Shown piece after piece: positions 36,102 to 38,693 of a stretch of DNA of 64,000 nt. The notes beneath the pieces are model-generated. The model was not told where the DNA came from. It worked only from the letters and a program-made list of their open reading frames with translations, and did no database searches. Origin of the DNA: Escherichia coli (GTDB lineage Bacteria > Pseudomonadota > Gammaproteobacteria > Enterobacterales > Enterobacteriaceae); assembly GCF_050320075.1 (NCBI RefSeq), contig NZ_CP190018.1. One strand, 5' to 3'. Numbering within the stretch: the first letter of the stretch is position 1; the number at the start of each line of letters is the position of its first letter. The translations under genes were made by a program, and so were the position numbers.

Positions 36102-38693
36102 ATGCATCAATCTGGTTCTGTTTCTCTTTGTCGTTCCGCAATATCTGTTCTGGTGGCTACAGCGTTATATTCACCCATAGCATTGGCATCAACAGTTGAG
36201 TATGGTGAGACAGTTGATGGTGTTGTCCTGGAAAAAGATATCCAGCTGGTTTATGGGACCGCCAATAATACGAAAATCAATCCTGGCGGAGAACAGCATA
36301 TTAAAGAATTTGGTATAAGTAGTAATACTGAAATTAACGGCGGGTATCAGTACATTGAAATGAATGGCACCGCAGAATACTCAATATTAAATGATGGTTA
36401 TCAAATTGTTCAAATGGGTGGTGCGGCAAACCAGACTACCCTCAATAATGGTGTGTTACAGGTTTATGGCGCAGCGAATGAACCTACGATTAAAGGCGGG
36501 CGCTTAATTATTGAAAAAGATGGGATTACCGTCTTTGCCGCTATCGAAAAGGGAGGATTACTGGAGGTTAAAGAGGGGGGATTAGCATTTGCGGTAGATC
36601 AGAAAGCCGGCGGTGCGATTAAAACAACCACCCGGGCCATGGAGGTATTCGGAACAAACCGTCTCGGTCAGTTCGATATCAAGGATGGTATTGCTAATAA
36701 TATGCTGTTGGAAAACGGCGGAAGTTTGCGAGTTGAAGAAAATGACTTCGCTTATAATACCACTGTGGATAGTGGCGGCTTACTGGAGGTTATGGATGGC
36801 GGGACTGCAACTGGCGTTGATAAAAAAGCAGGCGGAAAATTAATTGTCTCAACGAATGCGCTGGAAGTGAGTGGTACAAACAGTAAAGGCCAATTTAGTA
36901 TAAAAGATGGTGTGTCAAAAAATTATGAACTGGATGATGGTTCCGGGCTCATTGTTATGGAGGACACGCAGGCCATTGATACTATCCTTGATGAGCATGC
37001 CACTATGCAATCGCTGGGAAAGGATACTGGTACGAGAGTGCAGGCAAATGCGGTATATGATCTCGGTCGATCAGATCAGAATGGAAGTATCACGTATTCC
37101 TCAAAAGCCATCTCTGAAAATATGGTTATCAACAATGGCCGCGCTAACGTCTGGGCTGGCACAATGGTTAACGTTTCAGTCAGAGGGAATGATGGCATTC
37201 TTGAGGTCATGAAGCCGCAAATAAATTATGCGCCCGCAATGTTGGTGGGTAAGGTAGTGGTTTCTGATAGCGCTTCTTTTAGAACGCATGGTGCCGTGGA
37301 TACCAGCAAAGCGGATGTTTCGCTCGAAAATAGCGCATGGACCATCATTGCCGATATCACTACGACGAACCAAAACACTCGCCTCAACTTAGCCAACCTT
37401 GCGATGTCTGGCGCAAATGTGATTATGATGGCTGAGCCAGTGACTCGTTCATCTGTGACGGCAAGTGCGGAAAATTTCATTACGTTGACCACCAATACCC
37501 TGTCGGGAAATGGCAATTTTTATATGCGTACCGATATGGCTAATCATCAGAGCGATCAGCTCAACGTCACCGGTCAGGCAACAGGTGATTTCAAAATATT
37601 CGTGACGGACACCGGTGCCAGCCCGGCAGCAGGAGATAGCCTTACACTGGTAACAACGGGCGGCGGTGATGCTGCATTTACGTTGGGCAATGCCGGAGGC
37701 GTTGTTGATATCGGTACGTATGAATATACCTTGCTGGATAATGGCAACCATAGCTGGAGCCTCGCAGAGAATCGCGCGCAAATTACCCCTTCAACCACTG
37801 ATGTGCTGAACATGGCAGCAGCACAACCGCTGGTATTTGATGCAGAACTGGACACCGTGCGTGAGCGTCTTGGTAGCGTAAAAGGCGTTAGTTACGATAC
37901 GGCGATGTGGAGTTCGGCAATTAACACCCGCAACAACGTGACCACTGATGCGGGAGCTGGCTTTGAGCAAACATTGACGGGCCTGACGCTCGGTATCGAT
38001 AGCCGTTTCTCCCGTGAAGAAAGCAGCACAATTCGCGGCTTGTTCTTTGGTTACTCTCATTCTGATATTGGTTTTGATCGCGGCGGCAAAGGTAATATCG
38101 ATAGCTACACCCTGGGGGCTTATGCCGGTTGGGAGCATCAGAACGGTGCCTATGTTGATGGAGTGGTGAAAGTTGACCGTTTTGCCAACACCATCCATGG
38201 CAAGATGAGTAATGGAGCAACAGCGTTTGGCGATTACAATAGTAACGGCGCGGGTGCTCATGTCGAGAGCGGGTTCCGTTGGGTTGACGGATTGTGGAGT
38301 GTTAGACCCTATCTGGCCTTTACCGGCTTTACCACAGATGGTCAGGACTACACGTTATCAAATGGCATGCGCGCGGATGTGGGAAATACCCGGATATTAC
38401 GCGCTGAAGCGGGAACGGCGGTAAGCTATCACATGGACCTGCAAAACGGTACGACGTTGGAACCCTGGCTGAAAGCCGCCGTGCGTCAGGAATACGCCGA
38501 TTCTAACCAGGTGAAAGTTAATGACGATGGCAAATTTAATAATGATGTGGCTGGAACCCGTGGCGTTTATCAGGCTGGGATAAGGTCATCGTTTACCCCG
38601 ACGTTAAGCGGTCATTTGTCAGTCAGTTATGGCAATGGCGCAGGGGTAGAATCGCCGTGGAATATTCAGGCGGGTGTGGTCTGGACGTTCTGA
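36102..38693 (+). CDS. yejO: autotransporter (type Va) adhesin-like protein, apparently intact
   Basis: 863-aa ORF: signal-like N-terminus, repetitive Gly/Asn-rich passenger (repeated GG.L.V..GG.A.G units), C-terminal beta-barrel domain ending ...VVWTF. Confidence 0.8.
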   Translation: MHQSGSVSLCRSAISVLVATALYSPIALASTVEYGETVDGVVLEKDIQLVYGTANNTKINPGGEQHIKEFGISSNTEINGGYQYIEMNGTAEYSILNDGYQIVQMGGAANQTTLNNGVLQVYGAANEPTIKGGRLIIEKDGITVFAAIEKGGLLEVKEGGLAFAVDQKAGGAIKTTTRAMEVFGTNRLGQFDIKDGIANNMLLENGGSLRVEENDFAYNTTVDSGGLLEVMDGGTATGVDKKAGGKLIVSTNALEVSGTNSKGQFSIKDGVSKNYELDDGSGLIVMEDTQAIDTILDEHATMQSLGKDTGTRVQANAVYDLGRSDQNGSITYSSKAISENMVINNGRANVWAGTMVNVSVRGNDGILEVMKPQINYAPAMLVGKVVVSDSASFRTHGAVDTSKADVSLENSAWTIIADITTTNQNTRLNLANLAMSGANVIMMAEPVTRSSVTASAENFITLTTNTLSGNGNFYMRTDMANHQSDQLNVTGQATGDFKIFVTDTGASPAAGDSLTLVTTGGGDAAFTLGNAGGVVDIGTYEYTLLDNGNHSWSLAENRAQITPSTTDVLNMAAAQPLVFDAELDTVRERLGSVKGVSYDTAMWSSAINTRNNVTTDAGAGFEQTLTGLTLGIDSRFSREESSTIRGLFFGYSHSDIGFDRGGKGNIDSYTLGAYAGWEHQNGAYVDGVVKVDRFANTIHGKMSNGATAFGDYNSNGAGAHVESGFRWVDGLWSVRPYLAFTGFTTDGQDYTLSNGMRADVGNTRILRAEAGTAVSYHMDLQNGTTLEPWLKAAVRQEYADSNQVKVNDDGKFNNDVAGTRGVYQAGIRSSFTPTLSGHLSVSYGNGAGVESPWNIQAGVVWTF

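Follow-up and report, generated by a model that had tools for sequence, protein, structure and literature searches.

An intact yejO gene lies between narP and a genomic island

The window analyzed here is a 64,000-nucleotide stretch of Escherichia coli DNA (NCBI RefSeq assembly GCF_050320075.1, contig NZ_CP190018.1). At positions 36,102 to 38,693 on the forward strand, the six-frame list of open reading frames (ORFs) contains a single uninterrupted frame of 863 amino acids, with an ATG start and a TGA stop codon (38,691–38,693). Its translation runs from MHQSGSVSLCRS... at the N-terminus to ...GVVWTF at the C-terminus. Across positions 35,000 to 40,500 the window matches two E. coli chromosomes at 100% identity, those of YZLc1-3 (from chicken faeces in China) and Ec-U3 (from a human), where the ORF is annotated as "yejO: autotransporter YejO" (WP_049067937.1) and is flanked by narP on one side and on the other by an island that ends at tRNA-Pro. 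The gene order narP-yejO-proL is common to K-12, O157:H7, C, K71-77, LF82 and 042, and we assigned the protein to the YejO orthologue group from its full-length identity to K-12 b2190 and its position between narP and proL, with synteny in seven genomes.

We ruled out that the 863-residue ORF is a chance frame from its annotation in the identical genomes, its domain matches and its dN/dS of 0.11–0.29, both described below. An 85-residue ORF at 35,814–36,071 and antisense ORFs within yejO were treated as spurious, as they are annotated in no matching genome. We consider it very likely that the frame is an intact, ancestral allele of yejO, a chromosomal gene fixed between narP and tRNA-Pro (proL) that encodes a classical (type Va) autotransporter of the AIDA-I/Ag43 kind. 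In this intact form yejO has been described already, and the allele represents the ordinary state of a known gene rather than anything new.

YejO has the domain order of a classical autotransporter

Pfam profiles matched YejO with the AIDA family in two stretches (9.6e-52), PF03212 Pertactin at residues 431–555 (5.3e-45) and the PF03797 Autotransporter beta-domain at residues 602–841 (6.2e-46), arranged in the canonical order. Among NCBIfam models, the autotransporter barrel TIGR01414 matched residues 456–863 (1.7e-111), and the strand-loop-strand repeat model TIGR04415 scored 60.2 bits, which passes its cut-off of 30. These Pfam and NCBIfam searches found no protease or other enzymatic domain in YejO. 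The earlier note on this DNA had described an uninterrupted frame with a passenger and a beta-barrel, and both the translation and the profile matches agree with that description.

The three parts of a type Va autotransporter can each be located. At the N-terminus, inspection and a hydropathy scan give a predicted Sec signal peptide at 36,102–36,188 (+; residues 1–29, MHQSGSVSLCRSAISVLVATALYSPIALA, followed by STVEYG), with a basic R11, a hydrophobic core at residues 7–28 (Kyte-Doolittle means of 1.4–1.9) and an A-L-A motif before S30. A passenger that Pfam and sequence matches to the PDB identify as a beta-helical repeat domain separates the signal peptide from the barrel. It includes two tandem 74-residue units at 36,543–36,986 (+; residues ~148–221 and ~222–295) that are covered by Pfam AIDA and TIGR04415, and its N-terminal part (residues 48–295) matches Ag43 (9.4e-37), TibA (3.1e-26) and an AIDA-I family adhesin. 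The Pertactin domain forms the C-terminal end of the passenger (37,392–37,766, +) and is also matched by the pertactin structures 1dab and 2iou. The third part is the C-terminal 12-stranded barrel domain, the beta-barrel translocator (37,905–38,690, +; residues 602–863), which PF03797 and TIGR01414 recognize and which ends in an aromatic residue (...VWTF); a terminal phenylalanine is usual for outer-membrane barrels. The BrkA barrel 3qq2 matches residues 582–863, and Vag8 is the best solved match across residues 459–860.

The K-12 gene is interrupted by a single IS5

That yejO of K-12 is a disrupted pseudogene had been stated in the earlier note, and this proved to be so. In a K-12 genome, the annotation splits the locus into a 69-nucleotide N-terminal fragment, a transposase gene of IS5 and a remainder labelled as a yejO pseudogene "missing N-terminus". 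Reading the junctions placed a 1195-bp IS5 after ORF nucleotide 67, within the signal-peptide codons, at a TTAT that is duplicated in K-12 as the target-site repeat. The corresponding TTAT in the window (36,165–36,168, +) is unoccupied. Inactivation of K-12 yejO by IS5K near the start codon has been reported (PMC11005336), and this IS5 is one of eleven copies in K-12, upstream of which only an uncharacterised putative promoter, PyejO, is listed (PMC11677980). When IS5 and one TTAT are removed, the K-12 sequence gives an intact 863-residue frame without any other lesion, and the intact yejO of E. coli C is nucleotide-identical to K-12 yejO without IS5. The K-12 defect is thus a single recent insertion; K-12 is the exception and an intact yejO is the common E. 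coli state.

With IS5 removed, the window and K-12 genes align without indels and differ at 64 of 2592 nucleotides (97.6% identity). The proteins of the window and of K-12/C differ at 26 of 863 residues (97.0% identity), with 23 of the differences within passenger positions 72–444. The K-12 alignment contained no intact yejO identical to that of the window. The ompC gene of the window is 1095 nucleotides long (364 amino acids) compared with 1104 nucleotides (367 amino acids) in K-12, as the earlier note had suggested in taking a 364-residue OmpC to point away from K-12. Together with the 100% match to YZLc1-3 and Ec-U3 and an island that is absent from K-12, these comparisons uphold the claim that the window is from a non-K-12 lineage.

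yejO is widespread, variable in its passenger and repeatedly lost

Some yejO sequence is present in 5421 of 5426 complete E. coli genomes, and in 4281 of the 5426 (about three quarters) at least 80% of the gene is covered at one place. The particular allele is uncommon, with at least 99% identity to the window yejO in only 32 of the 5421 genomes. When we sampled 60 evenly spaced records, 41 had a contiguous full-length match, which does not guarantee an open frame, since at least one of the 41, SMN013SH2 (H74), is annotated as frameshifted. The sample also included 3 K-12-type records with IS5, 3 with a 94% variant and 13 with only 9–36% of yejO. The 94% variant, represented by the 789-residue protein of K71-77, has an exact in-frame loss of one 74-residue repeat unit (residues 168–241).

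Loss of the gene has occurred repeatedly. In K-12 it came about through IS5, in SMN013SH2 through a frameshift and in the B2-type strain LF82 through large deletions; the LF82 yejO pseudogene lacks the equivalent of window positions 36,574–37,577 and 38,032–38,665 and most of the barrel is gone. Published surveys describe a similar distribution: YejO was found in every commensal and diarrhoeagenic genome surveyed, and every UPEC genome had a truncated version (Wells et al. 2010, as cited in PMC3426408); ST131 is reported to be without yejO (PMC5654935). The repeated losses indicate that yejO is dispensable in some niches. A separate observation comes from SMN013SH2, where, within the stretch examined (1501–5597), a different prophage that carries a major capsid gene lies directly downstream of the frameshifted yejO and replaces proL. 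From this arrangement, we conclude that the same site accepts different elements and that yejO decays independently across lineages.

To describe selection on the gene, we calculated dN/dS by the Nei-Gojobori method among five full-length yejO alleles. The overall values were 0.11–0.29. By region, dN/dS was 0.14–0.37 in the passenger, 0–0.32 in the pertactin/linker segment and 0.02–0.13 in the barrel. This pattern indicates a gene maintained by purifying selection, with the predicted exposed part more variable.

The yejO terminator abuts the island boundary

The sequence that follows the yejO stop codon (38,694–38,800) folds at −39 kcal/mol (z = −5.9) into two strong hairpins. The first (38,703–38,736, +) has a 15-bp stem and a 4-nt loop with no T-run after it, and probably serves to stabilise the RNA or as a pause signal, not as a canonical terminator. 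Comparison by eye found two differences from K-12 in this hairpin, with pairing kept through G-U. The second hairpin (38,755–38,785) has a 13-bp stem between an A-run and a T-run, together spanning 38,755–38,793, and is the only strong call in the region by the terminator scan. It lies ~10 nt from the convergent tRNA-Pro 3′ end in K-12, O157:H7, C, K71-77 and LF82; from this position, we read it as a bidirectional terminator common to yejO and proL in island-free strains.

K-12-like sequence runs on through GATTTTTGG. The 8-bp direct repeat CACGAGAG (38,798–38,805) comes next, with island DNA from 38,806, so the ~8.18 kb island starts 12–20 nt beyond the yejO terminator. The junction falls where the earlier note had put it in stating that the yejO 3′ terminators abut the island, and the locus places the left edge of the island with an uncertainty of only a few bases. 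The left repeat duplicates the 3′ end of proL in degenerate form. It reads GG----CACGAGAG where proL has GGTCGGCACGAGAG, and is thus without 4 nt (TCGG). The right copy of CACGAGAG (46,981–46,988) lies in the 3′ end of proL itself, the tRNA-Pro (GGG) gene at 46,974–47,050 (−) that served as the integration target. EAEC 042 carries this island at the equivalent site, and there the left copy reads GGC-CACGAGAG, a related 3-nt-shorter version. Such a degenerate attL might impair excision of the island.

Prophages are known to integrate between yejO and tRNA-Pro in Shigella flexneri and EAEC 042 (PMC4924310). In the order of events that we propose, the island would have integrated into proL after yejO was already in place, leaving the terminator common to yejO and proL next to yejO. 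A hairpin with a T-run lies in the island just downstream of proL (46,907–46,946, −; −17.3 kcal/mol, z = −2.8) and would be the replacement for that original terminator. We saw no evidence that the proL insertion alters yejO 3′-end processing or drives antisense transcription into yejO.

YejO is a candidate surface adhesin related to Ag43, AIDA-I and TibA

YejO of the window shares the narP-yejO-proL locus, the length of 863 residues and the domain order with YejO of K-12 (the b2190 pseudogene), C, O157:H7 and EAEC 042, and differs from b2190 in being without IS5. Drawing on autotransporter biology, we propose that the 29-residue signal peptide would direct export through Sec, after which BAM would insert the C-terminal domain (~residues 602–863) as a 12-stranded barrel. 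The passenger (~residues 30–555) would then be threaded outward, C-terminus first. The pertactin-like segment would act as a folding nucleus that folds first and drives secretion. The result would be an exposed beta-helix with AIDA-type repeats, for which the most likely role would be that of an adhesin or cell-cell aggregation factor.

Comparison with characterized relatives both motivates this proposal and limits it. Like Ag43 (Flu), AIDA-I and TibA, YejO combines AIDA-type strand-loop-strand repeats with a pertactin region and then a beta-barrel. However, its passenger is shorter than theirs, and it scores 132.1 bits against a cut-off of 1200 for the Ag43/Cah equivalog NF033177 and 70.8 bits against a cut-off of 1200 for the AIDA-I model NF033176. 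With scores below both cut-offs, the functions of those proteins are not simply transferable to YejO. What YejO shares with the self-associating autotransporters is the repeat type (TIGR04415) only. Unlike AIDA-I, no heptosyltransferase (aah-like) or other glycosyltransferase gene adjoins yejO, which has narP and the island as its neighbours. The pertactin domain and translocator are also found in Bordetella pertactin, BrkA and Vag8, proteins of a different genus and biology whose N-terminal passengers are unrelated to that of YejO.

Searches of the literature found no tests of YejO function and no direct evidence that the protein is expressed, displayed on the surface or adhesive in any strain. 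Most mentions of yejO use its K-12 deletion as a neutral control or merely list the gene, and the locus tags Z3449, ECs3081 and b2190 returned only irrelevant papers. YejO may be a functional surface adhesin, as the homology and the purifying selection would suggest. We more tentatively advance the specific proposal that in non-B2 E. coli the intact protein works as an adhesin in aggregation or colonisation, a role missed because K-12 lacks it, and would put the chances of this at clearly less than even.

Expression and alternative readings of yejO

The promoter and 5′ UTR of yejO are presumed to lie in the 319-bp divergent intergenic region between narP, which ends at 35,782, and the yejO start codon (35,783–36,101). 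This region has only 3 differences from K-12, and an AGGA is found 10 nt ahead of the ATG. Its G+C content is 37%, and that of the first 900 nt of yejO is 43.6%, compared with 51% for the window. A sigma-70 scan found no consensus-like site between narP and yejO, and its overall count was below that of shuffled sequence (3 vs 6.4). A hairpin upstream of the ATG (36,043–36,061) was taken as a chance call rather than a terminator, as its 6-bp stem is weak; the terminator scan returned 8 sites in total, several weak stems included, against a shuffle mean of 3.6 (sd 1.8). An Rfam scan of 33,000–48,000 (E up to 1) gave the tRNA and two RNAs of the island as its only matches, none of them within or next to yejO. 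The intergenic region also has no GATC sites; unlike flu (Ag43), yejO is therefore unlikely to undergo phase variation of the Dam/OxyR type, and we rejected that form of control. In an RNA-seq compendium, transcripts of K-12 yejO appear in 106 of 3376 data sets, which places it with the genes detected least often (PMC10392735); this near-silence refers to the locus disrupted by IS5. The AT-rich promoter region and the near-silent K-12 locus suggest low or conditional yejO expression, and an AT-rich upstream region without GATC or a consensus sigma-70 promoter is compatible with silencing or conditional expression.

These features also fit a reading in which yejO is intact but cryptic, with hardly any condition under which it is transcribed, and makes no contribution to the surface; H-NS acting on its AT-rich 5′ region would be one possible cause. 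The low G+C content, the lack of a consensus promoter in the scan, the rarity of K-12 transcripts and the repeated loss of the gene in different lineages all speak for it. However, purifying selection, in the barrel especially, implies expression and use somewhere, most genomes retain the intact frame, and the transcript data come from the IS5-disrupted locus. We regard a cryptic yejO as possible, but would not bet on it.

YejO could instead be displayed on the surface in some role other than adhesion, such as the complement or serum resistance conferred by BrkA and Vag8 in Bordetella. The PDB matches to Vag8 (residues 459–860) and to the BrkA barrel would fit such a role, but they span the pertactin/translocator part that is common to all members of the family, whereas residues 48–295 match the self-associating adhesins Ag43, TibA and AIDA-I, and the profile searches gave no protease or other enzymatic domain; we consider a non-adhesin function improbable. 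That yejO is a decaying gene which by chance has yet to acquire a disabling mutation is disfavoured as very improbable: pseudogenes have arisen independently in K-12, SMN013SH2 and LF82, but each of five independent alleles has 863 codons exactly, their dN/dS is well below 1, and near-full-length copies persist in about three quarters of complete genomes.

If YejO is an adhesin, as we tentatively propose, its repeated loss, to IS5 in K-12 and to deletions in B2/UPEC strains, and its absence from ST131 would stem from selection in extraintestinal lineages against a surface antigen. An uncharacterised autotransporter of this kind leaves a small gap in the catalogue of E. coli adhesins, although no open question hangs on yejO. 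For the window itself, the value of the locus is that K-12 is exceptional for yejO, which helps to place this DNA in a lineage other than K-12.

The island between yejO and proL resembles a phage satellite

The 8.2-kb island that separates yejO from proL (38,806–46,980) looks like a phage satellite of the PICI/P4-like kind. It carries genes for an integrase, an HTH regulator, an Icd-like protein, a DUF4222 protein, a DUF927 protein, an SSB, a ProQ/FinO protein and a PerC-family regulator, together with an ash pseudogene. The EAEC 042 genome contains this element at the matching position, and in about 70 of 5426 complete genomes the left end of the island adjoins yejO.

Several features of the island were observed in passing. 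Within its gene-free left arm, 81 nt at 39,052–39,132 are 80.7% identical to the annotated cos-site of the Stx phage phiP27 (E = 1e-8), which suggests that the island may be packageable by a cos-type helper phage. Close by, at 39,164–39,194, three 9-nt-spaced CCxCCTGTCCCxC repeats stand opposite three inverted copies of GGGACAAGT (39,236–39,296), with an AT-rich spacer between the two sets. This iteron-like layout (39,164–39,296) looks like a replication origin for the DUF927 protein of the island. On the reverse strand at 44,485–44,673, Rfam identified a C4 antisense RNA (78.7 bits, 2.3e-14) beside the isrK Hfq-binding RNA (61.6 bits), adjoining the gene for the Icd-like protein, and the set resembles the c4-icd immunity module of the P1/P7 type. 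The PerC-family transcriptional regulator is encoded at 40,091–40,369 (−); PerC/Pch homologues activate the LEE in EPEC and EHEC.
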